The notes under the pieces are model-generated. The model had not been told where the DNA came from and did not search any database. It worked only from the letters and a program-made list of their open reading frames with translations. From the NCBI GenBank assembly GCA_011364985.1, contig RDOC01000002.1:1-64000 (forward strand): DNA of 64,000 bases, in the 5' to 3' direction. The DNA comes from Candidatus Thorarchaeota archaeon. GTDB taxonomy: Archaea > Asgardarchaeota > Thorarchaeia > Thorarchaeales > Thorarchaeaceae. The translations under genes were made by a program, and so were the position numbers. Shown here piece after piece: positions 19,056-40,044 of this stretch. The first letter of the stretch is position 1. Every line of letters starts with the position of its first letter.

Positions 19056-19200
19056 AGCGGGTTGGGGAAGCCGCAGAATATCGGATTCGTTCCGGGCTGC
19101 TTCATAGGCCTATCCCGCAGGGCTCATAACCCTGAGATCGGATGTTCAAAATACTGCGCAGGGTCATCCTGCCCGTAGGAATCTCATCCACCCGCTACCA
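19056..19200 (+). tRNA. tRNA-iMet(CAU) with two non-canonical introns (19073-19105 in the D-loop; 19151-19183 in the T-loop)
   Basis: After removing both introns: AGCGGGUUGGGGAAGCC|AGGCCUAUCCCGCAGGGCUCAUAACCCUGAGAUCGGAUGUUCAAA|UCAUCCACCCGCUACCA (79 nt), with A1-U72, GGG/CCC anticodon stem and encoded CCA. Confidence 0.93.
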
Positions 19201-19252
19201 CTTAACCATGGTTAATTTTCTTGTTTCTTTCCTGAACCTATCATCACTTTTC

Positions 19253-20062
19253 TTAGAAATCTTCCTCATGGAAAGTGGGATTGAGTCTATACCCCTCCTC
19301 ACCGCCATCTAGGACGACCGGCAGAATCTCATTCTCTTCAGTGGCAATCCTGAAAGCATCCTTAAGATAGTCGGGTTCGTCCATAAAGAGCTGCTTGATG
19401 ATGTCTTTCTTTGAGATACCCTCAGGAGACGCTCGTACCGCCTCCAATATTCCGTGGGCGAGGTCATGAATATCGGCAATATACATACGGAAGTCTTCCT
19501 TCCTTGAAAACTCCTCATGCATCTCTTCCATGGTTCTCTTATATTCCTCAGTCTTCTCGTATTCTGGAATAAGCATGAAGCAATGAATTGACTTCCCGTC
19601 ACATGTCGCTTTTGTTCTCCTTATTCTATTTGGAATATCCATCCAGTCAAGGTCATCATTAGAAAAGCCTTTGGCAGCAAGTCTGTCTCTGACTTCTTTA
19701 ATAGGTGTCTCGCCAGGAAAAACACCATCTGCTTCTTGTACTATTCTAAGAAGACCTAATGCCATTGGAGATAAGTCGCGAATTTCTTGTTTTTCCTCTA
19801 TTGATAAAATTTTCAAATGCCAACATGGTCGCCCTGAATCAAGTTCAGAATCATCAGATGGGCAATCAACAACAAGATCGATTGCAAGTTTGTTGATAAG
19901 ATTCGTTATGGCACCATTCACATGTCCGATGCTATATTGGGATGAAAGATTATTCTCGACCAAACTTCTGGGGAGCTGACCGTTGCTCTCATTTTCTAGC
20001 ATTCGGAGAATGCTCTCCTCTACTTCCTCTATTGATGTACTCAAGTCAAGTATTCCTCCCAA
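19253..20062 (-). CDS. hypothetical acidic protein, possibly with wHTH-like repeats
   Basis: 269-aa ORF directly downstream of the tRNA; no family recognised. Confidence 0.6.
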   Translation of the reverse strand: MGGILDLSTSIEEVEESILRMLENESNGQLPRSLVENNLSSQYSIGHVNGAITNLINKLAIDLVVDCPSDDSELDSGRPCWHLKILSIEEKQEIRDLSPMALGLLRIVQEADGVFPGETPIKEVRDRLAAKGFSNDDLDWMDIPNRIRRTKATCDGKSIHCFMLIPEYEKTEEYKRTMEEMHEEFSRKEDFRMYIADIHDLAHGILEAVRASPEGISKKDIIKQLFMDEPDYLKDAFRIATEENEILPVVLDGGEEGYRLNPTFHEEDF

Positions 20063-20613
20063 ACAGGATTCACGGACTGCCCATCAGCCTCAATCTGCCT
20101 TGCGATTTCACGACTGTGATTTCTATCACTTGTAACTAAATCGATTGACACTTTCATCTTAATAGAGTAGTTTGGCGGGGCTATAAGTACACAACAAATT
20201 GCGTCATTCTTTGTTCTTGTTTCTGCAGAAGATGACAAAGAGAGCCTTTGACTTTGTATAGTATTGCAGAGTTCTCATCGGGGTATATTCGTGCTGGTTA
20301 TACTATTTGTATTCGTACTGTATTCTCACGAAGCAATTGAATTACTTCGATTGTGTTCATTTGCTTTCGTTCTACTCATTTTATGACTAAGCAACATGGA
20401 TTCAGAGATTTTCACCATACTTCCGTTTTCATTGCAGACAATTTAAACCCCCTCGATTTGCAGTCAAGGGTTTTTCCACCATGATATATGGCCATCGCTT
20501 TGGGGCTGATAGTCGGACATAAACATGCCCTTAAGGCCTGCCGGTTGAGACTCTCCTATGACATACCAACCGCCCTTGCATCTTAGATTCATCTCTTTCT
20601 AATTCGCGATAAC

Positions 20614-21378
20614 ATGACCATAAAGTTCTATAAATCAAGAAAACAGCACGGTACTTGGTGGTGTGTGGTGAATACAAAAGAGAGCCTTCATCAGAGGTCC
20701 GAGAGAAAGGCGATTCAAATCATCACGGACACTGTGTTTGGCTTGGCTCTCGGCCTTGGAGCTTTTAGCCTTACTGAATATGAAATATCTACCATTGAAG
20801 ATGTCTATTTCGCAATAGGTTTCTTTTTCTTGACCTTCTTCCTTGTCAGTCTGTTTTGGGTTTGGGTTCGTCGCTTCTTTGAGGATTATGTGGTGTATGG
20901 AGAGACTATCTCGGGGATTCTTTATATTCTGTGTTTGTTAGTAGCTATTCTACCATTCATTATGCGACTCTTCTTTTCCGGATTCATTGGAGAATCAGGA
21001 GAGGTATCATTCTTGGCTCAGACATGGTTGTATCCATTAGATATGGGCAGTATTGGTATGCTGGTTGGATCGTTGCATGTGCTCTTCCTGAATCAAGGCC
21101 GAGGTAGGGTTCCGTGGGAGGAATACAAGCACGTTGTGACCGACGGATATACCGCTTTTGTCCTTGGAGGGGGGTTTTTGCTCTCTGCAGCAATACCGAA
21201 CAACCTGACTCTGGCAGATATTCTGTTCTTTTCGATTCCAAGCCCCTTTGCAGACATAACAGCGAAAATTGGAGTCTGGTTCATCGTAGTCCTCCTTGCA
21301 GTGATTGTCTATATACCAATAGAGCTTGGCCTGAGAGGGATAGAGAAATCATATACCTATACAGGACAGGCATTATGA
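20614..21378 (+). CDS. TMEM175/DUF1211-like membrane protein
   Basis: TM1 pattern AIQIITDTVFGLALGL resembles RLEAFSDGVFAIAITL; about 6 TM segments. Confidence 0.55.
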   Translation: MTIKFYKSRKQHGTWWCVVNTKESLHQRSERKAIQIITDTVFGLALGLGAFSLTEYEISTIEDVYFAIGFFFLTFFLVSLFWVWVRRFFEDYVVYGETISGILYILCLLVAILPFIMRLFFSGFIGESGEVSFLAQTWLYPLDMGSIGMLVGSLHVLFLNQGRGRVPWEEYKHVVTDGYTAFVLGGGFLLSAAIPNNLTLADILFFSIPSPFADITAKIGVWFIVVLLAVIVYIPIELGLRGIEKSYTYTGQAL

Positions 21379-21513
21379 ATCAGGCAGACCTCAAGCATGT
21401 ATATGGAGATTGATTATTGATAACAGATGGAACTCTGTCAGTTGTATACCTCCGATATTCAAGGGGCATATGCGACTCCATATTATGGATTTCAGAGTCT
21501 GGAGAAAAGAGAA

Positions 21514-21940
21514 ATGGATTTTGATGAAATTCTCGACTCGGCCCCTTCCTATAAGGAGTTCATGACTGTCAGCGAGCTTGATAGATCGAGCAAGATGCTC
21601 TCAGAGGAGTTCGCCGAGGTTTCCTTATAGATGATTGGAGAATTTGAAGAAGAAAGACCTATTTCATGCTTGAAGATTGGCAGAGATGAGAAGAATGCAC
21701 TTCTATTTGCGTTTCCTCATCCCAATGAGCCCATCGGGAGTATGACGGTCGAGTTCCTCTCAAGATACCTAGCGGAGAATACTGAGTTCATTGAGAAGAC
21801 GGGATTCACGTGGCATCTCATTAAAGTCATAGATCCTTGATGGTACAGCGCTAAACGAGGGGTGGTTTAAGAGCGGCTTCGATCCGGTGAAATATGCCAA
21901 ACACTACTATAGGCCGACACCACACGAACAGATGAATCTA
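21514..21940 (+). pseudogene. M14-family zinc carboxypeptidase, disrupted
   Basis: PHPNEPIGS and IDP/DG..LNEGWF..YYRP motifs; in-frame stop at 21628, frameshift near 21838, truncated. Confidence 0.75.
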
Positions 21941-21971
21941 GGATGAGAGCTACAACCGATTTCATTTCATA

Positions 21972-22639
21972 TTATGCCTTTGAGTTCTTACGATGTGCAG
22001 ATAGCAGGTTTACAACCTTATCATCAGAAACATCATACCAATTCGCGTATGCATTGGCAACAGCAAAGGCAAAGCCGGTTTCGATTCTTGGGCCAGACCA
22101 GATGATCCACGAGAGGCCTTACTCTTTGGGCTGCACTTCCTGAAGAAGTCGGGATTGCAACAGTGACCGACTTGGTAAAAACTCCTTTACCGACTGAATT
22201 GCAGCCATCATTGTGAATCCGGATGCCAATCCATCATCAACTAGAATCACATCTCGATTCTCAGGGTTCTCAATGCCGACAAGCCGGTGATATGCCGCCC
22301 TTCTGTTTTCGATTTGTGCTAGAGTCTGCTCGCGAATCGACATGATTTCATTCTCGGTCAATCCAATTCTGGCAACCAAATCCTCGTTCAGAATCATTGT
22401 CCCAAGTGATGTCAGAACACCAAAGCCAGCCTCAGTATTGTACGGAATTGCATCTTCCATACAATAATAAGATCAAGACTAGCATTGAGTGCTTTCGCAA
22501 TCTGAACAGCAATAGTGACTCCACCATTAGGAATTGCTAGAACCATCGGCCTAGACCACAATTTGATATGGCGCAGCTCGTTCGCAAGAATCATACCTGC
22601 ATGGCCACGATCTTGATAGGACCATCTCAGAGAAATCAC
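21972..22639 (-). pseudogene. phosphoribosyltransferase (COG1926-like), frameshifted
   Basis: DR.HAG..LA, LAIPNGGV, VILVDDGLASGFTM and AVANAY..WYDVSD spread across three frames. Confidence 0.8.
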
Positions 22640-22693
22640 CTAAGGACTCTATATAGCCGCTGCAATTCATATATGTTGTAGCATAAGGCAGGA

Positions 22694-22963
22694 ATGACAC
22701 TAGACATGATACCAGAGATTGCTCTCCTCATTGGCATTTACTCCATCTGGATACTGATTCTTGTTGCATCGATGGTTTCCACCGAGGAGGTGTCTCTTAC
22801 TATGACCACCCTTCCGTTCATAGTCACCTTTCCTATTGCGATGATTCTGGCGGCGCTAATAGAGACATTCATTCCTGGCACCTTCGCGGTGAATCTTCTG
22901 CTGACAATAGTAGTTGGAGTGTTACTCTTCATTCGATGGGTAATGGCCATAGTAGATGAATAG
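22694..22963 (+). CDS. small membrane protein
   Basis: 89 aa with 3 hydrophobic helices. Confidence 0.6.
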   Translation: MTLDMIPEIALLIGIYSIWILILVASMVSTEEVSLTMTTLPFIVTFPIAMILAALIETFIPGTFAVNLLLTIVVGVLLFIRWVMAIVDE

Positions 22964-22995
22964 CCATAGGTCTCTTAGAAGCCTCTTGAGGTCAG

Positions 22996-23163
22996 CTAGC
23001 CTTCCTGCTTGTCCTTTCGCTTGAATTCCGTATAGCCGCATCGACCACAAGCAAAACGGTCAAAATGCTCGGCCATAAAGGTGCCCTTCTCGCACCGGGG
23101 GCATTCTCGACGGGTACGGGAGATTATGCCTTTCTTATCAACTTTATACAGCTTATGTGACAC
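22996..23163 (-). CDS. rps27ae: 30S ribosomal protein S27ae (eS31); not in the ORF track
   Basis: [47 protein letters not shown]. Confidence 0.95.
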
Positions 23164-23466
23164 TTATGTGCCCTCCTTCTTTGTCTCATGCCTGACAAGG
23201 ATATGTTTGCGCTCTACTTTTTTCATCTGTTCTGAGGAATCATATATTCTGGCGATGCCCTCGGAGTGATCACTCCCAAATCTCGTCTTGAGGCTTCTGA
23301 CAACAACCCTTGCCTCATCTGCATCGAATTGCGCGATAATTTTGGCACGCACATCGGCCCTGCTTGGAGTCGTACCGCCTGTATGTAGTACCTTGAACTT
23401 TATCTCCTTTCTAGCAAGAGGCGCATTCTCGATTTCTTTGAGGATTTCGATTTTCATGTACATCAC
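23164..23466 (-). CDS. rps24e: 30S ribosomal protein S24e
   Basis: N.PL.RKEI, TPSR, T.FG...S.G.ARIY. Confidence 0.93.
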   Translation of the reverse strand: MMYMKIEILKEIENAPLARKEIKFKVLHTGGTTPSRADVRAKIIAQFDADEARVVVRSLKTRFGSDHSEGIARIYDSSEQMKKVERKHILVRHETKKEGT

Positions 23467-23561
23467 TTACTACAAATGGGCATTTCCGGAGTGGAGTCAG
23501 CCATTCGACTCTGGGTTGTCTAATAAAGTTTTCACCACAGCAGCGGCAATTGTATAGAATC

Positions 23562-23774
23562 CTAACGGACCTTGAGGGCATACTTGCCTGGTTTATCGAT
23601 GTTCAGTCGTGAAGCTATGTATGAATGCTTTCGTGGGTCATCGTGAGGTTTGCTTCCGGGAAGGATAACAACTATTCCAGTGTACGAACTTGAAAGGTTG
23701 GTACTTCTACAATTTGGACACTGATCCTCTATGGTGAGAAAATGGCATTCTCTACAGGCTCTTGGTTTGGCCAT
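23562..23774 (-). CDS. spt4: transcription elongation factor Spt4 (RpoE2)
   Basis: ACRECH..CPNC..PGKYALKVR. Confidence 0.93.
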   Translation of the reverse strand: MAKPRACRECHFLTIEDQCPNCRSTNLSSSYTGIVVILPGSKPHDDPRKHSYIASRLNIDKPGKYALKVR

Positions 23775-23790
23775 TCTTCTTCAATCCTCG

Positions 23791-24393
23791 CTATTTCTTC
23801 TTTACGTCTTTGTCTTTCTTTGACTTCTCCCCACGGGCCATTTTCACATCATCCTCGACCCAAGAGTGATCTGGGCCGATTTTGCCAAGAAAGGGTTGAC
23901 GCATTGTGAGGCCGAGTTTTCCGGACCTGCTCCCTGATTCAAAGCTTATTGATGTGATTCGTGCGCGTACCATGTCACCTTCTGAAAGAGTACGTCCAGT
24001 TTCCTTTCCCAACAGAGCACTTCCCTTTGAGTCTTGTGTGATAAAGTCATCACAGATTTGACTAACATGACAGAGACCGTCTAGTGGACCCATTCGAATG
24101 AATGCACCGAAGTCCATCAGCTCCACAACGTTGCCTTCAACAATTTCTCCCCGGATAGGTTTGAAGACAAGAACCTGATATGTGACCGAGTGGTAAGTAG
24201 CGCCGTCGCCGGGCATAAGGCGACCTTGGCCTATTTCTTCAATTCCAATTACCGCAATCATCAGCCCAATGTCCCTATCAAGGACATTTTCATGTTGTTT
24301 GCGCAGATGTACCATTGCTGCCTCTTCGATTGGTGCACCAAATTCCTTAGGAGGAATACGTACAACATCTCTCACTGTTACTATTGAGTACAT
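23791..24393 (-). CDS. rpoE1: RNA polymerase subunit Rpo7 (RpoE1)
   Basis: VRIPP..FG, GDGA, FGAF..GP.DGL.HVSQI, LTMRQPFLGK. Confidence 0.96.
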   Translation of the reverse strand: MYSIVTVRDVVRIPPKEFGAPIEEAAMVHLRKQHENVLDRDIGLMIAVIGIEEIGQGRLMPGDGATYHSVTYQVLVFKPIRGEIVEGNVVELMDFGAFIRMGPLDGLCHVSQICDDFITQDSKGSALLGKETGRTLSEGDMVRARITSISFESGSRSGKLGLTMRQPFLGKIGPDHSWVEDDVKMARGEKSKKDKDVKKK

Positions 24394-24524
24394 TTCAGAC
24401 GCTCCTTGACTGACAGGACAATTCCGAATAGAATGACCAGACTGATGAGTGAATCATATAAATCTGAACCCGCCGGTTCAGCGGTGCAACACTTTGAAAA
24501 ACATAAAAACATTGTGAATCGGCC

Positions 24525-24932
24525 TTATTCTATAAGACCTTCAAGAGAGAGATGTTTCTTGGCCCTCAAATAGAGGACAGGTATTCCTTGTTTCCTGGCT
24601 GAAGCCCTGAGTTCGCGATCATTCGTTGCAAGAATGCCCTTGATAGAAGTGGCATACATTAACAGTTGAAGGTCAACTGGCAATTCGGGAAAAGGGCTCT
24701 CAATGACTGTACATCTCTCCGCTAATCTGCGTGCGATCCCAAAAATCCGGCGATTTGTTAGGCCTTTTCCTTCACCGAGAGCCTCGATTTCATCAAGGAC
24801 AGAGGAGAGTAGAATGAACTCGGGTTGACGTTCCAGTATTCTTTCGGCTTCTAGAAACATATCAATATTGAACTGAGCAGGGATAGTCATGAAGTTTGCA
24901 TCGACCACTACGAGAACTGCCAAATCGTTCAC
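24525..24932 (-). CDS. Fcf1/Utp24-like PIN-domain protein
   Basis: VDANF..P.QF, LATND.ELR, GIPVLYLR; conserved position after eIF2-gamma. Confidence 0.85.
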   Translation of the reverse strand: MNDLAVLVVVDANFMTIPAQFNIDMFLEAERILERQPEFILLSSVLDEIEALGEGKGLTNRRIFGIARRLAERCTVIESPFPELPVDLQLLMYATSIKGILATNDRELRASARKQGIPVLYLRAKKHLSLEGLIE

Positions 24933-24944
24933 ATGCCATGCATC

Positions 24945-26186
24945 TTAGATCTCGGCATAACCGACAAGACGCCATTTGTTTTCTACCTGGCGTCCGAGTG
25001 CGATACGTTGCCCTTTTTCCGCCGCAACAGGCCGCTTTAGAGATAGCTCAATCTCGTCGCCGTGCAAACGTGTGATAATACCCACGGTGGCAGCTGTTCC
25101 TATGACCATCATCAAAGGCTCATTGAGCCGAAGGTTCTCAACAATTTTTTTTGTTTCCATTCCAACAACACGTTCCATAAGCTTGGGCTTAATCATGAGC
25201 TTGTCAATGATATTTGGCATTTTATTCACTTTGCCAACGACATTCCCAACCAAACGGTCTGCACGAGTCGATGCAGGGTCGAGTCCAGTACCCACACCAA
25301 TTAGCCCACCAGGTCGAGCTTCTTCAAGAGGATTGTTGCTTCCTGATAAAAGACTGGCAATTCTAGCTCTGATTGGCTCAAAGCCCTTGTCACCCTTCGA
25401 ACCAGGAGCGATTTCAATCTCATCGCCCACTTTGAGAACACCACGAACGATAGAGCCACCAACAACGCCACCCTTGAGCTGGTTGGGAGGAGTTCCTGGC
25501 TTGTTTATATCGAAGGATCTAGCAACGAACATCTTTGGTGGTGCATCCTCGTCTCTATGAGGGGTGGGTATAACTTCCTCGATTCGTTGAATCAACAAGT
25601 CAGTGTTTGCACCAAAGACCGCAGAAACAGGAATGATCGGAGCGTTCTCTGCGGTGGTTCCCTTCACAAAATCCTGAATCTGTTTGTAATGTTTAAGAGC
25701 CTCTTCCTTTGACACTAGTTCAATCTTGTTTTGGACAATGATAAGGTTCTTCACGCCAACAATTTCCAGTGCACGAAGATGTTCCGATGTCTGGGGCATG
25801 GGGCAAGGCTCATTGGCTGCAATAACCAATATTGCACCATCCATTATACTTGCTCCGCTCAGACAAGTTGCCATAAGTGATTCATGACCAGGACTATCAA
25901 CGAAGGAGATCTCACGAAGCACCTCAAGGGACCCTCCACACTTAGGACATTTATTCTCTCTTGCCAAATACGACGTGGTGTAACAATCGGGTTCTGGACA
26001 TTTCGTACATTTGAAAAGAGTCGTAGCAGCATAGCCCAGTCTAATGGAGATACCCCTTCTCACCTCGTCCGAGTGTCTATCTGTCCACTCTCCCGTTAGA
26101 TATTCTACCAGAGTGGTCTTCCCATGGTCAACATGACCGAGGGTGCCAATACTAACTTCGGATTGTCCTTCGTACTTTTTAGTCAC
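24945..26186 (-). CDS. eif2g: translation initiation factor 2 gamma subunit
   Basis: GHVDHGKTT, RGISIRLGYA, DSPGHE, QNKI, RSFDINKPG. Confidence 0.97.
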   Translation of the reverse strand: MTKKYEGQSEVSIGTLGHVDHGKTTLVEYLTGEWTDRHSDEVRRGISIRLGYAATTLFKCTKCPEPDCYTTSYLARENKCPKCGGSLEVLREISFVDSPGHESLMATCLSGASIMDGAILVIAANEPCPMPQTSEHLRALEIVGVKNLIIVQNKIELVSKEEALKHYKQIQDFVKGTTAENAPIIPVSAVFGANTDLLIQRIEEVIPTPHRDEDAPPKMFVARSFDINKPGTPPNQLKGGVVGGSIVRGVLKVGDEIEIAPGSKGDKGFEPIRARIASLLSGSNNPLEEARPGGLIGVGTGLDPASTRADRLVGNVVGKVNKMPNIIDKLMIKPKLMERVVGMETKKIVENLRLNEPLMMVIGTAATVGIITRLHGDEIELSLKRPVAAEKGQRIALGRQVENKWRLVGYAEI

Positions 26187-26303
26187 CGAGTTGTCACTTC
26201 CAAGGTCCAATAGTGATTCGCACAATAAAGCCAACTGAATCATATTTATGAAGACTGTGGTCAAGTCAGAAGATGCTGTGTAGGTGGAGAAGCTTGGGGT
26301 GGT

Positions 26304-26687
26304 CTAGGCTTCCTTCAATACCAGTTCTTCTAAGGGTGCACTTCCTCTCTCTTCGATACGCACATTTACTTGGGATATATCTGGACTCAATTCTCGACCA
26401 CGAACCGTCTTCCTTCGGGCTATTCCTCTCCGCTTCGGGCGAAAACCAGGTGGGCCACGAACTAAAATACGCTTCTTGCCGCTCCCGTGTACATCTGGAC
26501 GAACTGGAAAACCAGAAGAGTCACTACCCCCAGTAATCCTTAGCTTATATCCTGGTAGGCCCATCGCATCACCTTCCACTACATCCCCGACACTCTTTCC
26601 TACTAATGCATTGGTCTTTGCATCATCTAGTTCGTACTGGATGGCTTTACCATTTTCTGGATCAGATATTACTAATTTGAATGGCAA
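26304..26687 (-). CDS. rps6e: 30S ribosomal protein S6e
   Basis: KLVISDP, ITGGSD.SGFP.R, RRKTVRG. Confidence 0.96.
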   Translation of the reverse strand: MPFKLVISDPENGKAIQYELDDAKTNALVGKSVGDVVEGDAMGLPGYKLRITGGSDSSGFPVRPDVHGSGKKRILVRGPPGFRPKRRGIARRKTVRGRELSPDISQVNVRIEERGSAPLEELVLKEA

Positions 26688-26877
26688 CTGACAAATCGCC
26701 TACCTAGAGTCGTAAAGAGAATCCTTGATGCGGACTCTGGCGGTACGCAAATGACATCACTTTATGAGGATTGTGGTCGGGCAGATGGATTCAATCTCTC
26801 TTCGGTACACTACATAAGCATTATAACACTGAAAGTTTGTGACGCACTAACCACCGAAGGCAGAGATGCACGTAATA

Positions 26878-28044
26878 ATGGATACACTTACTCTTATCTT
26901 CACAATTGTCATCGTTTGGACCACGATTTACATAGTTTCTCAGGCTATTGGCCTTGAGAAACTGAACGAAAAGGGAGTGGATGCAGGAACTCCATTCTTT
27001 CTCATGTTCAAGACAGAGAGACTCAATTCATTTCTTACCAGAGCTGGAAAACGATTTCCCAAGCTGTTTTGGAATATCGGGATTGTAGTGGCTTTCATTG
27101 GTATGGCACTTGGATTCTATATCTTCACAGATAATCTTCTGAAGTTATTCTTCGCACCCGTTGAGGCAGGAGGTGTAGTTCCCATTATTCCCGGCATTAC
27201 AATCACTGGGTTGCCCCTATTTTACATGATGATAGGTCTAGGAATTACGCTTATCACACATGAGTTTGCACACGGTATGGCTGCGTCGAAGGACGATATT
27301 CCAGTGAAGAGTTCTGGACTTCTCTTCTTCTTCCTCTTGTTCGGTGGCTTTGTTGAACCGGACGAGGAAGTGTATGAGAAGAAAGCAACATCAAAACAGA
27401 GAATGCGACTTCTCGCCGCGGGGTCATATGCTAATCTCATAGCAGCTGTCTTTCTGCTTCTTATAATCATGAATTTCAATCCCATAATGTCGGTTGCATT
27501 TAACCAACCAAGTGGAGCATTCATCTATGAAACGGAAACAGGGACAGCAGGCGGGGCGGCTCTAGAGTTTGGCGATGTCATTATAGGACTAAATGACACA
27601 GTCATCGAATCGTGGGCTGATGTGGGCGAGTTCATGTCTACTGCCCCTGTAGGTGCTCAGGTTACAATTGAAACACTGGATGGGTCTGTGATAGTGATCT
27701 TGGGCCAACATCCGGACAACGCGTCAAGAGGGTATATTGGAGTATTTGGGGCAGATTATTGGGAACCGAAGCCGGGTTGGAACTTGTTTCTGAGTCCGTT
27801 GTACGTTTTTCACCTTCAGCAGACCCTGTTCTGGACATGGATAATCTTGGTTTCGGTGGGCCTGTTTAATCTTCTACCCATACCCCTATTCGATGGCGAC
27901 AAGATACTTAGAGAATCACTTCGCCTGACTGTAAAGGATGAGAGAAAGATCCAATATATCATGTGGCCAGCAAGGATTATTGCCGTGTCAATAGTAGTTC
28001 TCAGTATTGGTTTGAGCCTTTATCTTGGAAAAGGGCTTTTCTGA
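26878..28044 (+). CDS. site-2 protease (M50) with PDZ domain
   Basis: HEFAH, AAGS.AN, FNLLPIPLFDG. Confidence 0.92.
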   Translation: MDTLTLIFTIVIVWTTIYIVSQAIGLEKLNEKGVDAGTPFFLMFKTERLNSFLTRAGKRFPKLFWNIGIVVAFIGMALGFYIFTDNLLKLFFAPVEAGGVVPIIPGITITGLPLFYMMIGLGITLITHEFAHGMAASKDDIPVKSSGLLFFFLLFGGFVEPDEEVYEKKATSKQRMRLLAAGSYANLIAAVFLLLIIMNFNPIMSVAFNQPSGAFIYETETGTAGGAALEFGDVIIGLNDTVIESWADVGEFMSTAPVGAQVTIETLDGSVIVILGQHPDNASRGYIGVFGADYWEPKPGWNLFLSPLYVFHLQQTLFWTWIILVSVGLFNLLPIPLFDGDKILRESLRLTVKDERKIQYIMWPARIIAVSIVVLSIGLSLYLGKGLF

Positions 28045-30324: not shown

Positions 30325-30337
30325 GTGAACGGCAAGA

Positions 30338-31453: not shown

Positions 31454-31456
31454 CAT

Positions 31457-32545
31457 CTATCTTGTGATTTTGAAACGAAGAAGAGCAGCAATACCGCCAA
31501 GGCTCTGGAGCTGGTCACCAGCAGGATGATCAGAGGAAACAATATGAAAAGCACCTCGAGCCTTCTCGGTATCACGAATCAGTGCATCTAACCATCTTCG
31601 CTGGCTATCATCTTCCTCTCGCAGTTTTATATCGGTAATCAGCAGATTCTCTACTGCACCATACTGAACAGCCTGCGCTACTTCCTTGTCCCCGTAGGCT
31701 CCAAGGCCGTCACCCTTTGCGATATGCTCGATTATTTGAGAGATTAGCTGCGTTTCAGTTTCAATCTTCAGATTTTCTACAACCTTTGAAATAATTCCGC
31801 GAAATAGAATCTCCTTTGCCCCGGGAATGCCAATGGAATTCGTACTCTCTGCAACAGTCGGAGGCATGTTCTTTATTCCAGCCTTCTTCAGCTGCTCAAT
31901 GAAGTGGTCCTTCACAAAACCAGGGCCGGCTACAATAATCAATGCGATTTCATTCTGTTCTAGCTGAGAATAAATTGCAAGATTAACATCACTGAAGAAT
32001 TCGTTCATTGTAGCATCGTAGGATTTCTGGTCACCTCTCTTTCTGGATATGCTGGTACGTATGCGTGTGGCCTCTTTGATTCCAAAGTCTGCAACTAGAA
32101 ACAGCTCAGCAGTTCCGTCCTCAATAGTGACAAGAAGACAGACCGGTCTCAATCCAGCTTTTTGTGCCTCTTCCAGCCTAGTAAGAAGATACTTCGGCCA
32201 ATGCTCCTTAATTATGGTAAGTGTATTGCCTACTTCTACGTTGAAGGTATGATATGCCCCTATATTCACCAAGTCACTCGGTCCTTCCTTAATTATGCCT
32301 TTGATTCGTACTCGGTTTGAAAAGGCATGAAATGATACATCGTCCACCTGAAGAATAAGTGTCATTGGTTTTCGAACGCTCTCTTGTTTGCGGCTATCCT
32401 CATCACCCACTTTGACTCGCCGTGTTGTTCTGGATACTACAATATCACCAGGGCTGACAACGTTGTACAGGTGCCAAAGGTCATCTAATACTTCGATTTT
32501 TAGTGATATTTTTCCCTCTTTTAGAACCCGTTTAAGTATCTTCAA
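31457..32545 (-). CDS. pelA: mRNA surveillance protein pelota
   Basis: DDLWHL, G.YHT, AGPGF.K, LGGIAALLRF. Confidence 0.95.
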   Translation of the reverse strand: MKILKRVLKEGKISLKIEVLDDLWHLYNVVSPGDIVVSRTTRRVKVGDEDSRKQESVRKPMTLILQVDDVSFHAFSNRVRIKGIIKEGPSDLVNIGAYHTFNVEVGNTLTIIKEHWPKYLLTRLEEAQKAGLRPVCLLVTIEDGTAELFLVADFGIKEATRIRTSISRKRGDQKSYDATMNEFFSDVNLAIYSQLEQNEIALIIVAGPGFVKDHFIEQLKKAGIKNMPPTVAESTNSIGIPGAKEILFRGIISKVVENLKIETETQLISQIIEHIAKGDGLGAYGDKEVAQAVQYGAVENLLITDIKLREEDDSQRRWLDALIRDTEKARGAFHIVSSDHPAGDQLQSLGGIAALLRFKITR

Positions 32546-32572
32546 GATGACATCACACCAAGAAAGCTCTGC

Positions 32573-34042
32573 TTAGAAGAAATAGTCTTCGTACCTACTA
32601 TGTTCTTTGTTCGGATTGGTATTTCTTGGATGTCGTGACTCCAACAAGGTTAGGCCTTGACTCAAAGCCTCGGCTTTCTTTACATGAGAGTTCTCAACAA
32701 GATTGTGCCCATCTTGAACAGCCAGATCGCCCGAGATACGAATGATTCCACCTAGTTCTCGTAGTCTAAGTGTGAAAGCATTATGTTGGCCATCAATCCT
32801 TCTCGCAATGTCTTTGGCAATCTCAAGCACGGAGAGAACAGCTTCAGAGCTAAGGTGGGGAATTCGTCTATCTTCTATTACTGTCTGTGCAATAAATCGA
32901 ACAAGATTGTTCGCGTTTTGTGGCGTCTTTGGCATCCAGTGATTGAGCATTATCTCATACCCATAGCCGCGAATACGGGAGCGCAGAGGAGGCAAGATAA
33001 ACTTCAAGTCCTCCATGTTACAGGAAGCAAAGAGAAGAAAGTCACAAGGTACATCATCCACACGAATTGCTGCTCCAGAGCTTGTAGGGTTGTGCCCAGA
33101 TATCGGATACTTTCGCTCCTGCATCGCAGTGAGCAAGTACTTCTGAAGAATACCGAGTGCAGCAATCTCATCGACATAGAGTATTCCCTCATGTGCTTCA
33201 TGAATAGCACCTGGTATGACTCTCATGTGTGGTGCGATGCCAATGTCATCTGCCCCTCCATAGGGATCGTGACGCACATCGCCGAGAAGCTCTGTAGAAC
33301 TTGTTCCACTTACTCTAACAAATCTTGACGAATCATACGAAACGAGAACATTCATGGAGCTGTGTGAGTGTGTGAGTGCTTCAGCTTCGTTGTGGTCAAG
33401 AGGAGTTCGTAGAACCCGGATATTGTCAAGGCCCTCCCTGCGATAAGTGACTTTGAATGGATGGCCATCCAAATCTTCAATATACCAATCTTCTAGCAGG
33501 GCTGCCTCACTGGCAATATTGAACACACGAAGAAGACCAGAGTAAGATTTGTATTGCTGATAGCTTTCATAGCTTCTGTCACTTCGCTTAGGAGAGTCGC
33601 ATTCAATGCAAAGCTCTTGACTAGGTAGGGACAGACTATTACAGATTGGACACCGATATCCCATTCTTACTGCAATATCGAAGGGTAAGTCATCAGGCCG
33701 AACGTATTCATCAATGGTGTTCAAAGCATAGGGATTCGGGATGTCGTTCTTTTCTGTCCTTCGAACAAGTACCTTTGGTCGACTATCCTGTTCCAGATTA
33801 GGGAGAATGACAATTTCGGTTTCGGGTTCTGGCAGAAGAGAGAATGCAGCACTGGCAAGCATTGATTTCCCAATTCCAGGTTCTCCGCAGAGTAATACAT
33901 GTCTTCTCTGTGTGATAGCCGAACGAACTAGAGTAACCGCATGATCTTGACCGATTATCCTCTGAAACGGGTCATTGGTAGTGCATATTTCTGCCGTTGA
34001 TTCCCTACCTTCTAAAATCCAAGCAAGATCATCGAGTTTCAA
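32573..34042 (-). CDS. LonB-like AAA+ ATPase lacking the protease domain
   Basis: IGQDHAV, GEPGIGKS, LLGDVRHDPYG, GAIHEAHEGILYVDEI, LRSRIRGYGYE, LRLRELGG; ends before any Ser-Lys protease domain. Confidence 0.85.
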   Translation of the reverse strand: MKLDDLAWILEGRESTAEICTTNDPFQRIIGQDHAVTLVRSAITQRRHVLLCGEPGIGKSMLASAAFSLLPEPETEIVILPNLEQDSRPKVLVRRTEKNDIPNPYALNTIDEYVRPDDLPFDIAVRMGYRCPICNSLSLPSQELCIECDSPKRSDRSYESYQQYKSYSGLLRVFNIASEAALLEDWYIEDLDGHPFKVTYRREGLDNIRVLRTPLDHNEAEALTHSHSSMNVLVSYDSSRFVRVSGTSSTELLGDVRHDPYGGADDIGIAPHMRVIPGAIHEAHEGILYVDEIAALGILQKYLLTAMQERKYPISGHNPTSSGAAIRVDDVPCDFLLFASCNMEDLKFILPPLRSRIRGYGYEIMLNHWMPKTPQNANNLVRFIAQTVIEDRRIPHLSSEAVLSVLEIAKDIARRIDGQHNAFTLRLRELGGIIRISGDLAVQDGHNLVENSHVKKAEALSQGLTLLESRHPRNTNPNKEHSRYEDYFF

Positions 34043-34173
34043 GTCTCACACGTCACTTGGAGATGGAAGTCTGGAGCAAAATCATAACTGTGAGTATTAC
34101 TCGACAAGATGGCGAATGAACTAAGGGATGAAATAATGGAAACCGGCCTATCTTTCATTAGAATTGGTCGGAA

Positions 34174-35445
34174 TTAGGCACCTATGTCATCGAAAGTGAC
34201 TATCTGAATACCTGTTACTCCCTTCTCAAGATCAGCTATTGCAGCGCCTATTAGTAGACTTGTCTTCTTTCGTTTCGCGATGTCTACAAGGCGTTGTGTG
34301 ATTACTCCATCAAATACCACAATATGCGGGTTTTCGAGGCCCTCAAGAACTCTTGCAAGGTCGGCAACACCACAATCTGCAATCACATTCTTCTCCTGAT
34401 CGAAGATCACGGCTTTGAAAGCTTCTTTAATCTCAATAGCCTTCTGTATGTAAACTTCATCTACTTCTATTGATTGTTTTCGCCGAGGTGCTCCTCTTCT
34501 TGAAACCTCTTCATCATCCTTCCGAGCCGGTACACGCCGGTCGGTTCTTCTTGAATGTGGCTCTCTCTTTGGTTTCGTTTCTTTTCTTCTTGACAGGGGT
34601 TGTTTATCACTCACCAGCGCCAGAGCTTGGTCTGCTGGGATTTGTGTTTGAAGAGCTTTGATTACTTCTCCCCGTGTTAGTTCTTCCACTTCTTTGCCTT
34701 CAGGAGCACGGGCGATGTAATCAACCCTAGCAACCTGCATCAATTCTCTGAGGATAAGGTCACCTCCCCTATCCCCATCAAGAAAAGCAATAATTTTCTT
34801 CTTGCTCTTCTTCGTCAGGTCAGCAATCGATTTCGATACGTGAGTGCCTTCTACAGCCACGGTATTCTCTATTCCGAACTTCATGAGATTGACAATATCA
34901 GCTCTTCCCTCAACAATGATTATCTCCTCAGCTCCTTCCATTCCAGGACCTGCTGGCAGGTTATCAGGACCGTACTTCGTGATTGTACCCTTTCGTCCTT
35001 TAGTGACTGCAGAAGTGATTTCTTCTGTCCCTGGTGCAATATCTTCTTCCCATCCTTTGAGAATACTGATAGCACGGCTAACAACCCTTCGCCTCTTCGC
35101 GCCCCTAATATCTTCAACCTTTTCCAATGTCACTTTGGCGGTACAAGGCCCCACCCTATCTACGGTTTCGAGAGAAGCGGCAAGTATTGCAGTCGCTGTC
35201 TTGTTGAGCGAAACAGGAATTACAATCTCTCCCTTGCTATTGCCCCCTGTGGAGCGTATTGCAATTTGAATTCGTCCGATTCTGCCGGTCCGTTGTAGTT
35301 CACGAAGATCTAATTCCTCGCCCAGAAGCCCCTCTGTCTGCCCAAATATGGCTCCAACAACGTCTGGTTTGTCTACTACTCCATCTATCTCAATCTTTGC
35401 TCTAATGACGTATTTTGCAGCACTTGAGTCAAAATCTGTACCCAA
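34174..35445 (-). CDS. dnaG: archaeal DnaG (TOPRIM, exosome-associated)
   Basis: DVVGAIFGQTEGLLG, VEGRAD, DGDRGG, FDGVITQRL. Confidence 0.96.
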   Translation of the reverse strand: MGTDFDSSAAKYVIRAKIEIDGVVDKPDVVGAIFGQTEGLLGEELDLRELQRTGRIGRIQIAIRSTGGNSKGEIVIPVSLNKTATAILAASLETVDRVGPCTAKVTLEKVEDIRGAKRRRVVSRAISILKGWEEDIAPGTEEITSAVTKGRKGTITKYGPDNLPAGPGMEGAEEIIIVEGRADIVNLMKFGIENTVAVEGTHVSKSIADLTKKSKKKIIAFLDGDRGGDLILRELMQVARVDYIARAPEGKEVEELTRGEVIKALQTQIPADQALALVSDKQPLSRRKETKPKREPHSRRTDRRVPARKDDEEVSRRGAPRRKQSIEVDEVYIQKAIEIKEAFKAVIFDQEKNVIADCGVADLARVLEGLENPHIVVFDGVITQRLVDIAKRKKTSLLIGAAIADLEKGVTGIQIVTFDDIGA

Positions 35446-35887
35446 CGATGAAATCTCCTATGAAATCCAGTGCCATAGACTCTCCCAAATCAAACTTAGG
35501 GCATTTTGCCCATTTCCTGTCTTTCTATTGACTCGGGAATACTTCTTCATACCCCCACCGGGAACTTGATTCGCTATGCGCCATTTCCCATTAAACATGC
35601 ATTGTGAGTATGTGATTTGATGAGTGATGAATGATAAGCGTCCTGTGCAATGGCTCAACAGTCCTCAGGAACCGGGATCAGTGTTTGTTCGAGGAATCTG
35701 TGGCACTTGTAATATGATGATTTGATAAGTTGTGGGTGTGACCAAATATTACTATATTTCAGAAACACCCTACATCTTAATCTGGGAGTACACGCTATTT
35801 GAAGCTGTCGTTAGAGTCATCATTAATATGCTCTTCATGGAGGATGGGCCAGATAATTGTGTGATACGCGCCAATTGATAAGGCTAA

Positions 35888-36186
35888 TAACCACTGGGAG
35901 AGAATTAATTCATGTTCAGGAGAAATATCCCTCTTACGAGGGCGCGCTGAGGTTTGCACAATGAAGCGTTGCGCAAGAAGGGGGTAACAGTCTGAACAGA
36001 TGCCTGCCAAGGACCATTCGGACGAGCCATAACGGACTCGCGTGATGAGGATTTCTCCTTAGATGAGCCGCGGGTCACCCAGGCCTCGTACATTGGCAGG
36101 ACGGCCGATGTCATGAATGTCCAGCACGAGACAACTCAGCAGAGCCGGATGTATTTCTGATGCCATGATGCTGGGAGTTAGTGGTA
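35888..36186 (+). ncRNA. candidate ~300-nt structured non-coding RNA, family unidentified
   Basis: GC-richer island with many nested stems, G-U pairs on the + strand, K-turn-like motifs and an 8-bp long-range complement (see findings). Confidence 0.5.
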
Positions 36187-36446
36187 TGGAGTATAGATAT
36201 CGGCCACTTTCTAATTCTAGATAGCTATATTCTTAGTTTCTTCAATCTTCAGAATCTCCACTCGAGAGCCGGGAGCTTTTTCAGACACAAGCTCCACAGA
36301 CTTCTGAGTATCTGCTTTGATAACTGAACAAATCCAGCCATGGATATTCTCATATATCATTATTCGCTCGGAATAACTCTTCTTGGTTTTTCATATATGG
36401 AATATCTTAAGATGGAGAAAACATGCAGAATGAGAAGTGAATAGGT

Positions 36447-37352
36447 ATGGTTACCGCTCCTCATCCAGATTTTGTAGAAGCAGGTCGTATTGCGGCCAAA
36501 GTAATCGAGGAAGTAGCTAGAGAAGTTCGTCCGAGAGTCAAGGTTCTACGAATTTGTGCTCTTGCCGAAAGAAGGATACTGGAATATGTTGGGAAAAGAG
36601 GAGGAATTGCTTTTCCATGCAATGTTTCTATCAATGAAGAGGCCGCACATTATACAAGCCCTCGAGGAGATACGAAGATGTTTCCGGAACAGGGTCTTGT
36701 TAAAATCGATATTGGAGCACATGTAAATGGGCATATCTCTGATACAGCGGTGACAGTGGACCTTGATGGAACATTTGAAAAGTTCGTTGCCGCGGCCAAA
36801 TCATCTCTCGATGCAGCTATTGATGTTGTCCGTCCAGGAATACAGGTAGGTGAAGTGGGTGCAGAGATTGAGAAAACTATCAAGAGACACGGTCTCAAGC
36901 CAGTTCATCAGCTATCAGGACACCAGTTAAAACCATGGATATTGCATGCCGGAAAGAACGTTCCCAATGTGAGAATAAGGCGAAGTGCGGAAATGAAAGT
37001 CGGGGAAACTTACGCGATTGAACCTTTTGCGACCAATGGGAATGGTACGATAAGAAGTGGTGAGAATGCCTTCATATTTTCAAACAATATGTCAAACAAG
37101 AAGAAGCTTGATAGACTATCCGTTCAGATTCGAAATCAGACCAGACAACGGTTTGGCACATTGCCTTGGGCATCAAGATGGTTGAGAAGTCAGAAAGTTG
37201 ATACAAATACAATCATTGCGACCTTGGTTAAAGCTGGAGTAGTTAGGGAGTACCCAATTCTATACGAGGGCAGAAATGGCATGGTTTCGCAGTTTGAGCA
37301 TAGCATATTTGTTGGAGAAGATGGAGCCATTGTAACAACTCTTCGCAAGTAG
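36447..37352 (+). CDS. map: methionine aminopeptidase type II
   Basis: AFPCN.S.N..AAHY, KID.G.H.NG...D, LSGH, HAG, AIEPF, QFEH. Confidence 0.93.
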   Translation: MVTAPHPDFVEAGRIAAKVIEEVAREVRPRVKVLRICALAERRILEYVGKRGGIAFPCNVSINEEAAHYTSPRGDTKMFPEQGLVKIDIGAHVNGHISDTAVTVDLDGTFEKFVAAAKSSLDAAIDVVRPGIQVGEVGAEIEKTIKRHGLKPVHQLSGHQLKPWILHAGKNVPNVRIRRSAEMKVGETYAIEPFATNGNGTIRSGENAFIFSNNMSNKKKLDRLSVQIRNQTRQRFGTLPWASRWLRSQKVDTNTIIATLVKAGVVREYPILYEGRNGMVSQFEHSIFVGEDGAIVTTLRK

Positions 37353-37419
37353 TTTCGTCCAGCGTACATAAAACGGCTTAAGAATAGCAAGATGCATTTT
37401 GATGTAAGGGTGCATTCAA

Positions 37420-38316
37420 TTGCTCAAACCACATCCAGACGCCGTCAAGGCTGGAGAAATTGCAGCACGCGTTCTCAAAGAAACAAGAAAAATGGTCGAG
37501 CCTAATACAAAGATTATCCGGCTGTGTGTCCATGCTGAGAAGAGAATCGTTGAATACGGGGGAAAACCAGCATTCCCATTTAATGTATGTATCAACAATA
37601 TTGCCGCGCATCGAACATCGCCAAGAAATGATTCCGAAATCATACCTGAGTTTGGTCTTGTCAAGCTTGATGTTGGAGTACATGTGAATGGCTATATTGC
37701 TGATACTGGACTAACGGTTGATATTGATGGTTCACTAGAGGGGTTTCCGGCAGCAACTGATGACGCTCTTCAAGAAGCGTTTGCCCTGTTCAAGCCTGGT
37801 ATGAGCCTAAGCAAAGTTGGGAAGCAAATTGAGAGGACCATTGGGGCATACGGTCTTAGACCTGTGAAAGACCTCAGTGGACATAGTATTGCAAGATTCA
37901 AGCTGCATGCCGGCAAGAAAGTACCAAACATAGGAATGCGAAACCTTCCAACAATCGAAGCAGGAGAATACTATGCAATTGAGCCCTATGCAACCAGTGG
38001 TTCAGGTAGAGTAGTTGAAACAGATCACATCTTCATCTTCGCAAATAGGGGTAAAGCAGAACCCCTCGAAGGTACAACAGAAAAGCTACGATTATACCTT
38101 AGAGAGAAATATGGATCACTACCTTTTGCCATACGGTGGGTCAAGTCATCAAGTGCAAAAGTGAACTTGGTTGACGAGTTCAGAGAACTCTTGAAAAACA
38201 GAGCAATCAGGCCAATCCCTATGTTGGTGGAAAAGAGTACCAGGCCCGTGAGTATGTCGGAGCATACTATCTTTGTCTCTAAAGACGGGCCTGTGATCTT
38301 GACCAAGGTGAGCTAG
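37420..38316 (+). CDS. map: methionine aminopeptidase type II, tandem paralogue
   Basis: AFP.N...N..AAH, KLD.G.H.NG...D, LSGH, HAG, AIEPY, SEHT. Confidence 0.88.
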   Translation: MLKPHPDAVKAGEIAARVLKETRKMVEPNTKIIRLCVHAEKRIVEYGGKPAFPFNVCINNIAAHRTSPRNDSEIIPEFGLVKLDVGVHVNGYIADTGLTVDIDGSLEGFPAATDDALQEAFALFKPGMSLSKVGKQIERTIGAYGLRPVKDLSGHSIARFKLHAGKKVPNIGMRNLPTIEAGEYYAIEPYATSGSGRVVETDHIFIFANRGKAEPLEGTTEKLRLYLREKYGSLPFAIRWVKSSSAKVNLVDEFRELLKNRAIRPIPMLVEKSTRPVSMSEHTIFVSKDGPVILTKVS

Positions 38317-38672
38317 ACTGTTGGAACGGGCTCTTCTTCTCGCACCATATAGACACCTTGAATTGTCATTGAACCTTGGCACTTCGGGCATTTGGTTTCG
38401 AGTGACTTTAGAATAAAGTCGCCCTTCTGAAAGTCTCTAATCTCCTTGAATGTGCACTCTGGGTTGTCACACGCAATCTCAGTGACAGTTGGGGGATTGG
38501 GTTTCTCCTCCTTCTTGCCACCGGCAGTGAGTAGTGAGAAGCCCATAGCCATAATTGTAAGGCCAAGGAAGTAGTAGATAATATTCATGTTCTGGTCTGA
38601 AGATCCTAAGAAGAACATGATGCCTCCTCCGACTACGAGCACAATTCCGAGTAGTTTTGAAATTACACCCAT
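38313..38672 (-). CDS. 2-TM membrane protein with Zn-ribbon
   Basis: C....C.FKE.R.F..GDFI..CPKC; coupled to DUF1512. Confidence 0.7.
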   Translation of the reverse strand: MGVISKLLGIVLVVGGGIMFFLGSSDQNMNIIYYFLGLTIMAMGFSLLTAGGKKEEKPNPPTVTEIACDNPECTFKEIRDFQKGDFILKSLETKCPKCQGSMTIQGVYMVREEEPVPTV

Positions 38673-38683
38673 TTTTGGAACCT

Positions 38684-39805
38684 CTAAAGACCAATACCAA
38701 TCGTGTTCCCAATGCCTGCAAGGATTATTTTGTCACCAGGCTTGGTACGCTTCAGTATTGCTGTACGTATTCGCTCAATTACTTCAGGGACGGCATCTAA
38801 GATTTTTTTATCCATGACGCCAACTGCTGCAGCCTCATTTTCCTTGATGACAATAGCCTCGATGCCGATGTTATTCTCGGTTGCAGCCTGTTCCATTGCG
38901 TGCTTCTCTGGTCCAAGATCACCAATTGCTGCACCTGTTCCCTCAGATACCCTTCCGAGCTCTTCGCCCTCAAGTTTCAAGGCAGCATCGACGGTGATAA
39001 TTCGTGCAATTCTGCCTTTGTTTTGCTCTACAAGGGTCTTTACTGCAAGCCCAGGCTTACCAACAGTACCTCCAGGACCAGTTGCACGGAGAGCGTATAC
39101 TGTTCGCCCCTCTACTTCAACCGGATAATAGCCAACTTCGCGAGAGATTTCTGTAATATATGAGTCAGGAGTAGCTCCATACTCTCTTGCGAATCTTGTG
39201 ACCACAAGAGGGCCGATGCCATCACCTATCGGTTTTCCTTCGGAGAAGGCATCAAGCGAATCAAAGTAGGCTTTAGCAAGCAGTAGGATGTCCGGAAGCT
39301 GCATCTGCACTTGCATGATTATGAGTTGGCTGTTTGTCTTCTTGCCGAGAATATAGTAGTGACGCACAATTCGAAATACAAGACTAAGTACTTGGGTCAC
39401 TTCCAAAGTATTTTCCAAGGTCTGTAGCTCGGCTTGTGATGCCTCAGGAGCTAAGTCCGTTACAAACTCTTGAAAACGGTCTCTGCGCTCATCAAGAAGG
39501 TGGTCAAGTCGTTTTAGTATTCCCGCTGGGTCTAGGTCCACAGGCATGATAGTGAAATAGTCAAGCCAGCGGTCTAGCTCCTTGGCGACTTCTTCATCGC
39601 CCTTTCCATACCTCTTGAAGGTTTCAATGGCGGTTTCCCTAGATTCTAGTGCCATCTTCTTGAGCTCAATCAGTCCGGCTTCAATCTGCTTTAGCCATTG
39701 CCATATCTGAAACTTGGCACCATAAAGACTGAAAATGATGATGAATGCGAAGAAAGCCAGATTTATGATCCAGCTGAATTCGCTATCTGCTCCTATTCCC
39801 TGCAT
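38684..39805 (-). CDS. DUF1512-family protein
   Basis: P.DLDP.G, PIGDGIGP, GPGG.VG.PG, VDAALKLEGE, GIGNTIG. Confidence 0.85.
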   Translation of the reverse strand: MQGIGADSEFSWIINLAFFAFIIIFSLYGAKFQIWQWLKQIEAGLIELKKMALESRETAIETFKRYGKGDEEVAKELDRWLDYFTIMPVDLDPAGILKRLDHLLDERRDRFQEFVTDLAPEASQAELQTLENTLEVTQVLSLVFRIVRHYYILGKKTNSQLIIMQVQMQLPDILLLAKAYFDSLDAFSEGKPIGDGIGPLVVTRFAREYGATPDSYITEISREVGYYPVEVEGRTVYALRATGPGGTVGKPGLAVKTLVEQNKGRIARIITVDAALKLEGEELGRVSEGTGAAIGDLGPEKHAMEQAATENNIGIEAIVIKENEAAAVGVMDKKILDAVPEVIERIRTAILKRTKPGDKIILAGIGNTIGIGL

Positions 39806-39893
39806 CTGTATCAGCTCGACAAATTCCGGTTATGCTTTAACCCTTGTCATTTAGACATTCGGTTGTAGGTATATGAAGCTGATATGGAGAAGT

Positions 39894-40044
39894 AGTGGCA
39901 GCTTGCAGACCTGTCACGCGCTCGCGCAGCGAACATCTTCTGCAACGATCCTAGCATACGTCAGCCCGTGGAATGACTCCAGCAGCTTTTAACTTCCGAG
40001 TTCGGAATGGGATCGGGTGTGCCCTAGGACCTATGGCCGCCATC
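39894..40044 (-). rRNA. rrf: 5S rRNA with a 32-nt insertion (39957-39988)
   Basis: UGGCGGCCAUAG..ACCCGAUCCCAUUCCGAACUCGGAAGUUAA[insert]UGCUAGGAUCGUU..GCGAGC..AAGCUGCCA; helix I and helix II pairings intact. Confidence 0.95.

Follow-up and report, generated by a model that had tools for sequence, protein, structure and literature searches.

Archaeal introns that are removed at a motif termed bulge-helix-bulge (BHB) are known from tRNA, rRNA and mRNA, and a 2026 preprint on Asgard tRNA introns names their arrival as the central open problem (10.64898/2026.10.13.758758). Here we describe probable introns of this kind, about 30 nucleotides (nt) long, in Candidatus Thorarchaeia, including three that interrupt an initiator methionine tRNA (tRNA-iMet) gene and a 5S rRNA gene in the first 64,000 nt (C15:1-64000, the window) of one contig of the host genome G000 (1.70 Mb, 74% complete). 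The RNase HII encoded in the window has its best matches in Ca. Thorarchaeota MAGs. The closest described systems each share some of their traits. Transposed tRNA introns of the Thermoproteales, as far as a 2010 study is relayed in later accounts (PMC4090602; 10.64898/2026.10.13.758758), are likewise short, patchily distributed, placed at non-canonical positions and related in sequence across different sites; in these accounts 28% of them fall into families of 80% identity that cross tRNA types, whereas Thorarchaeia have almost none, and the Thorarchaeia introns extend to 5S, 16S and 23S rRNA and to mRNAs, with a fixed size and a loop signature. BHB introns of the hairpin type (HP, <50 nt) in archaeal 16S rRNA (Jay and Inskeep 2015, PMC4496867) are also non-coding and sit at conserved rRNA sites, two of which, loci 908 and 1391, appear from their flanking sequence to match two Thorarchaeia 16S sites. 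The HP introns are confined to rRNA, with 5S not a host, and are co-converted with introns encoding homing endonucleases, whereas no endonuclease partner or co-conversion was seen in Thorarchaeia.

The cbf5 pre-mRNA intron of Crenarchaeota (Watanabe 2002; Yokobori 2009, PMC2738675) is likewise a BHB intron within coding sequence that EndA removes, and it has been named, with one case in a 5' untranslated region, as the sole earlier archaeal mRNA example (PMC7714728). It occupies one ancient site in one gene, whereas Thorarchaeia present at least nine coding-sequence sites in five genes (EF-1alpha, rpoA1, porA, ahcY and hutU), patchily distributed and built like the tRNA and rRNA introns. In other Asgard archaea, tRNA introns at BHB sites are also numerous, non-canonical and repeatedly gained (Valentin-Alvarado 2024, PMC11291895; Goswami et al. 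2026, 10.64898/2026.10.13.758758); these studies concern tRNA genes of Freyr-, Jord- and Atabeyarchaeia with a median of 22-23 nt, against a mode of 30 in Thorarchaeia, and the preprint found no route of arrival and does not mention rRNA, mRNA, hairpins or Thorarchaeia. Insertions in prokaryotic 5S rRNA have been reviewed as expansion segments (Stepanov and Fox 2021, PMC7812874), but the confirmed ones are retained and no spliced 5S intron is given there. A literature search, with most subscription papers outside its reach, turned up neither a 5S intron nor an mRNA intron from Asgard archaea, nor any class that extends over tRNA, rRNA and mRNA. The present work adds a census of the whole class, null tests, the members in rRNA and rpoA1, the link from tRNA-iMet to 5S and a test of transfer in EF-1alpha.

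On the evidence of their sequences, we regard it as likely that these inserts constitute a Thorarchaeia-wide class of non-coding BHB mini-introns that are spliced out and are related by common descent with occasional jumps. Thorarchaeia offer a testable case for the arrival problem: one class is distributed over tRNA, all three rRNAs and mRNA, the iMet D-loop is a candidate donor for both 5S and rpoA1 as recipients, and one lateral transfer is apparently recent.

Probable mini-introns of tRNA and rRNA genes

Introns were extracted from G000 and six relatives by comparison with intronless references, all genomes compared being metagenome-assembled genomes (MAGs), and the class is described from 157 introns at 78 sites, with stem pairing judged by position-fixed pair counts and nulls. 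The tRNA set leaves out genes with four or five introns, which the finder missed. Members follow a common plan of 1 nt, one strand of a stem of ~9 bp, a 5-nt loop (mostly AYTTC), the other stem strand, a 4-nt helix strand and 2 nt. Among 128 BHB-compatible tRNA inserts, 83% measure 28-33 nt with a mode of 30, a size range that, like the outer pairs, is partly circular because the tRNA set was pre-selected by BHB pairing and length. In the 66 introns of exactly 30 nt, each of the nine fixed stem pairs is formed in 83-98% of sequences, as opposed to 39-50% after shuffling, and all pair types are used. Their loop has the composition A57 Y80 T84 T59 C69 (per cent) and is closed mostly by G-C or C-G; with one intron counted per site, it is position-specific (1.06 bits versus at most 0.69 when permuted).

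Inserts in 16S and 23S rRNA, EF-1alpha and rpoA1 were located by homology with the motif unused, and they fit the same plan. The 16S gene of G011 carries four 30-nt inserts, of which three are absent from G034 and one is common with G000 (loops ACTCC, AATCC and ACTTC), and its 23S gene carries inserts of 31 and 216 nt. The 216-nt insert (L290) and a longer insert near position 908 of the G034 16S gene (L293) are possibly nested introns. The earlier note on the window had suggested that other RNA genes and coding sequences be scanned for further members; 16S, 23S and coding sequences have them, but the signal recognition particle (SRP) RNA and RNase P RNA are of normal length in five genomes. 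At 29-33 nt, the introns have no room for a LAGLIDADG open reading frame (ORF), although no genome-wide search for a helper acting in trans was made; they are also too short for a group II ribozyme, and a search of five genomes for the reverse transcriptase family RVT_1 (PF00078) returned no match. A de novo genome scan with the hairpin-BHB shape as sole criterion was rejected as too unspecific (834 hits versus 736 in shuffled DNA).

The positions that the earlier note had given for the three inserts in the window were borne out (Table 1). Freed of both inserts, the tRNA-iMet gene agrees at every position with its intronless counterparts in G081 and G092; as it stands, neither ARAGORN nor Rfam detects it. 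The introns of this tRNA are patchy across Thorarchaeia, with none in several genomes, D-loop introns at three neighboring positions in ~30 and T-loop introns in four; the G030 orthologue of the T-loop intron is 70% identical, with the loop GCCAT. The core of the G000 T-loop intron resembles the anticodon arm of its own host tRNA (19113-19135; GCAGGG..TCAT..CCTG), which may reflect chance, local origin or conversion.

Table 1 Intron-bearing genes and introns of G000; positions are those of the window unless the contig is named.
Feature	Position	Strand	Properties
tRNA-iMet (CAT) gene, two introns	19056..19200	+	spliced form 79 nt including CCA
D-loop BHB intron, 33 nt, after nt 17	19073..19105	+	helix GAAG/CTTC 4/4, h' 3/3, loop TTCGT
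T-loop BHB intron (59/60), 33 nt	19151..19183	+	helix TTCA/GGAA 3/4, h' 3/3, h 3/3, loop GTCAT
5S rRNA gene, sole copy in genome	39893..40044	-	152 nt; 120 nt without intron
5S BHB intron, 32 nt, after GTTAA	39957..39988	-	helix AGTT/GACG 3/4, h' 3/3, loop GTCAT
EF-1alpha intron, 30 nt	C15:202262-202291		in-frame TGA within KDFI|KNM, helix 4/4, loop ATTTC

All three window junctions form a BHB or a relaxed BHB, scoring 4/3/1 (D-loop), 3/3/3 (T-loop) and 3/3/2 (5S) in helix, h' and h. The EndA of Asgard archaea belongs to the broad-specificity (alpha-beta)2 type, with an L1 loop that allows relaxed motifs (PMC5829648), and all five genomes searched encode two EndA paralogues (alpha and beta) and one RtcB. 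The features by which archaeal BHB introns are recognized in sequence, namely a junction motif, a host gene restored on removal and the two enzymes, are thus all present, and it is very probable that EndA and RtcB remove the introns from tRNA, 5S, 16S, 23S and mRNA alike. In the splicing that we envisage, the last helix strand of the intron would pair with four exon bases into a BHB or a relaxed helix-bulge-helix (HBh') motif, the two-subunit EndA would cut both bulges and RtcB would join the exons.

The 5S insert splits the conserved GTTAAG motif, and without it the gene matches the 5S gene of G003 gap-free at 100/118 positions and aligns without gaps to genus-mates. Inserts of 30-32 nt at this one junction are present in four of the 80 Thorarchaeia genomes whose 5S gene is complete (G000, G011, G023 and G030, from three genera), the other 76 being plain, so that the patchiness anticipated by the earlier note holds for 5S as it does for the iMet introns, which are present or absent among relatives. 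A metagenome scan for further 5S introns gave chance matches only among the 80 loci listed. In the four carriers, the junction helices are 93% paired, compared with 11-46% when slid, four sequences being too few for covariation. It is very improbable that the insert is a retained expansion segment rather than an intron. Retained 5S insertions do exist in Halococcus (PMC7812874), and the central helix in G000 has an A-G mismatch; against retention, this helix is paired 4/4 in G011 and G030, the four inserts comprise three different sequences with BHB geometry at one junction and the intron plan, and a retained insert would break GTTAAG. The G023 insert is moreover a textbook 30-nt member of the AYTTC type (loop ACTTC), which suggests repeated invasion of the 5S site.

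Inserts within protein-coding genes

Comparison of the G000 proteins with those of relatives yielded one gene split by exactly 30 nt, the single-copy EF-1alpha gene. Three metatranscriptomes from the same study, when compared with this gene, proved not to contain the organism. EF-1alpha introns occur in five of the 69 Thorarchaeia genomes with the gene, at codon 98 (G000, G030, G024 and G066), codon 84 (G102) and codon 53 (G030, a frameshifting 31-mer), and all six have the full set of helix (4/4) and h' (3/3) pairs. rpoA1 introns occur in 5/79 genomes, at codon 40 (G088, G100 and G071), codon 261 (G075) and codon 236 (G034), the last being a 65-mer made of a 30-nt member and an extra hairpin. 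G000 itself further carries inserts of 32, 32 and 29 nt in porA, ahcY and hutU, respectively, of the same plan. Removal rebuilds a conserved motif in all five genes. The earlier note had proposed that members might hide in frame inside mRNAs; members do occupy mRNAs, but not silently, since every one of them carries a stop or a frameshift within conserved motifs, and the inserts are absent in relatives.

A hairpin-BHB scan with an ORF-restoring filter ranked EF-1alpha first, listed porA and missed hutU and ahcY, so the mRNA census is incomplete. A candidate at window position 49259 was rejected as the pyrD/pyrK gene junction, and a pattern search with the EF-1alpha intron over the phylum proved too loose. 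Not counted were genes with stops that lack a 30-nt insert (EF-1alpha of G270 and G208; rpoA1 of G028 and G092) and the rpoA1 gene of G068, which has an assembly gap. In the rpoA1 gene of G028 (L551) and the EF-1alpha gene of G270 (L374), a single in-frame TAG or TGA without an insert interrupts an essential gene that is otherwise intact, pointing to recoding or a sequencing error.

We give next to no weight to the idea that the mRNA inserts are assembly artefacts or pseudogenes. The use of MAGs throughout and an N gap downstream in the G030 EF-1alpha gene might favor it, but independent genomes have inserts with compensated stems at one and the same junction (four genomes at EF-1alpha codon 98, three at rpoA1 codon 40), and the host genes, which are essential and present once in G000, are intact apart from the insert. 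If these inserts are introns, the number of archaeal genes known with a coding-sequence intron would rise from one to at least six, including the markers EF-1alpha and rpoA1, and mRNA splicing of the tRNA type would be a routine process among relatives of eukaryotes. Gene callers in practice split such protein genes, and tRNA and 5S genes of this build are overlooked.

Kinship between sites and possible routes of movement

The earlier note had seen a special kinship between the T-loop intron and the 5S intron of the window. The two do have the first A, TGC and the GTCAT loop in common, but tests on the whole sequence, the longest word and the loop count reject the kinship. They agree at 16/33 positions (0.485), a value that 20% of 6,900 different-site pairs attain (p = 0.27 under a structure-preserving null); they have no common word longer than the 5-nt loop, and 47% of pairs attain that length; and identical loops, found in 0.74% of pairs, are expected ~1.9 times among the 253 pairs of this genome and were seen twice. 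The unpaired elements are not kept in orthologues either, as the G011 5S intron has TAT for TGC and the T-loop intron of G030 starts with G and has AGT and the loop GCCAT. Equal length and layout are generic for the lineage, and the AA|T context of both insertions reflects the BHB bulge only, the helix strands being incompatible (GGAA pairs with TTCA, GACG with AGTT). What endures is the broader proposal of one intron class across stable-RNA genes, which is real and lineage-wide, though with a modal length of 30 rather than 33 and without the T-loop/5S pair as its evidence.

Ranking 74 sites by likeness to the 5S intron places the iMet D-loop site first and the iMet T-loop site 24th. The best cross-site match in 11,110 pairs, 15 nt centered on GGA-GTCAT-TCC, joins the 5S intron of G011 to the iMet D-loop intron (20/21) of G003, a genome of the same genus. 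Both are 32 nt with the same layout, agree at 22/32 positions in register, show a compensated pair in h' and have helix strands fitted to their targets; under a null that keeps the stems and the loop bias, the match has P = 0.002 when any 5S intron is considered and P = 0.0145 when any pair is. The G000 5S intron has 13 nt in common with the G003 intron and 12-13 nt with an iMet intron of G069, and most likely derives from a tRNA-iMet D-loop intron, while the G000 D-loop intron is itself a member of the GGA-NTCRN-TCC series of iMet D-loop introns. The rpoA1 intron at codon 261 has 12 nt in common with the iMet D-loop intron of G068. Sites with GTCAT-like loops (iMet D-loop, iMet T-loop, 5S and rpoA1) are longer than 30 nt in 5/5 cases (31-33 nt), as against 2/22 of the AYTTC type (p = 3e-4, with groups defined post hoc); the T-loop intron may accordingly be a member of this longer subfamily, at most a distant one. 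As in the Thermoproteales, related introns thus occur at different sites beyond chance, in a few cases only, whereas families at 80% identity are not found.

A near-identical pair in EF-1alpha bears on transfer between lineages. In G000 and G030, which belong to non-sister genera, the introns at codon 98 are identical at 29/30 positions, compared with 14/30 at four-fold sites and 35-70% for orthologous tRNA introns, and the four codon-98 carriers do not form a clade (approximately unbiased (AU) test, p = 2e-12), two of them having close intronless sisters. The pattern could instead reflect an old intron under strong selection with many losses. The balance tips modestly toward occupied sites having passed between lineages by lateral DNA conversion, as may have happened at codon 98.

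It is likely, in our judgment, that the introns descend from common ancestors with rare jumps to new sites. In such descent the hairpin tip would be inherited, compensatory changes would let the stems drift and re-matching would fit the 4-nt helix strand to each new target. Independent origin at each site, for instance by fold-back template switching, with splicing selection converging on 30 nt, 9 bp and AYTTC and no mobile family at all, seems quite improbable, although several observations agree with it. Between sites, most stems show no relatedness (mean identity 0.42 versus 0.41 under the null), cross-gene pairs at 80% are nearly absent, the helix strand is always target-specific and the likeness of the T-loop intron to the anticodon arm might be local. 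Convergence leaves the 15-nt 5S/iMet match, the link between loop type and length and the EF-1alpha pair in want of descent or transfer; furthermore, EndA is known to recognize the BHB, not an apical loop nine pairs away.

Several results weigh against mobile common descent. Only one of 943 within-genome pairs from different sites reaches 80% identity (two tRNA-Arg genes, at the same position), a rarity that agrees with the 1.5% given for other Asgard archaea (10.64898/2026.10.13.758758), and the cross-site evidence consists of few short matches, partly chosen after looking. Because donor and recipient helix strands differ at 3/4 positions, a simple reverse splice gives no perfect BHB, and none of the five genomes has an RVT_1 gene. 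No flanking co-conversion was found at EF-1alpha codon 98, where the third-position identity of the carriers equals that of random sets (p = 0.41), and thermosome (~150 genes) and EF-2 (~70) are intron-free though highly expressed.

How an intron would reach a new site is a separate question. The earlier note had proposed reverse splicing via EndA and RtcB followed by DNA conversion, which is plausible, although the lack of an RVT_1 gene in five genomes and the helix strand that must change with each target speak against it. On this route, excised intron RNA would be ligated into an EndA-cut target RNA, and fixation in DNA would follow through RNA-templated repair or a rare reverse transcriptase. 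Reverse splicing fits introns that have neither an ORF nor a terminal repeat and that are biased toward abundant RNAs; the RVT_1 result, the intron-free thermosome and EF-2 genes and the mismatch between donor and target helices weaken it, and we consider it conjectural and somewhat doubtful. Its strongest form, a selfish ~30-nt intron that has no gene of its own, exits and invades RNAs through the tRNA-splicing enzymes of its host and is colonizing core-gene mRNAs without a group II intron or spliceosome, is tentative and rather doubtful; were it correct, the invasion of protein-coding genes by introns would have been caught in progress in relatives of eukaryotes.

Invasion at the DNA level, in which a single-stranded DNA hairpin copy, or a donor carried by a virus or integrative element, would enter in the course of repair or replication and persist only where it can form a BHB, is an unlikely alternative to reverse splicing, yet it would need no reverse transcriptase and would accommodate both the moderately expressed hosts hutU, ahcY, porA and rpoA1 and the intron-free thermosome and EF-2 genes. 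Transposition in the Thermoproteales is also thought to act on DNA (PMC4090602), and copies of the iMet 3' half that resemble attachment sites exist in G072 and G074. Against a DNA route, the introns have no ORF, terminal repeats or target-site duplication, most sites lie in the most abundant RNAs, and no association with mobile elements was found in other Asgard archaea (Goswami et al., 10.64898/2026.10.13.758758).

Permuted 5S genes and further RNA loci

Thorarchaeia and a few other families have linear 5S genes, and most other Asgard families gave no linear 5S match. At the readable loci of the latter (L034-L044, L168-L187 and L328-L339), the 5S gene is circularly permuted, with the 3' half first and helix I closed by a short loop, and BHB cut sites on both sides predict a ring of 119-131 nt. 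Cutting and joining at the flanking BHB rebuilds the conserved GGAAGTTAAG, 5-6 bases from the Thorarchaeia intron site, which would make this stretch a spot accessible to EndA across the phylum. Two of the permuted genes come from MAGs with non-Asgard labels, Bathyarchaeia (L338) and 'Thermoproteota' (L339), which may be misbinned, and in two Atabeyarchaeia loci (L041 and L044) the upstream BHB half-site is doubled ~30 nt apart, so that the precursor may need two splicing steps.

Other tRNA loci are of interest in their own right. The iMet 3'-half copies of G072 and G074 (L151, L164-L167 and L153) are several and lack the 5' half, like attachment sites of integrative elements. The tRNA-Gly(GCC) gene at C16:36642-36807 of G000 has three introns of 30-31 nt, and the 74% likeness of two that lie five bases apart suggests local copying; two tRNA-Arg genes of G011 (C7, L194) have introns at 20/21 that are identical at 28/30 positions, suggesting recent conversion between isoacceptors. 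Introns at 37/38 (window 43935-44070 and orthologues; elongator Met/Ile-CAT and Leu-TAA) keep the word GGGGTCA in different folds, unlike the 30-nt class; the word may act in modification of the anticodon, as a guide or protein site. A tRNA-Ser gene at window 52155-52272 (-) has an additional insert of ~29 nt near 37/38 with uncertain boundaries, and a tRNA-Sec candidate with a long variable arm lies at C11:352835-352925 (-) of G000. Finally, window positions 9520-9565 (-) hold an eL15 ribosomal-protein leader (RF03144), an element described for Euryarchaeota and found here in an Asgard genome.

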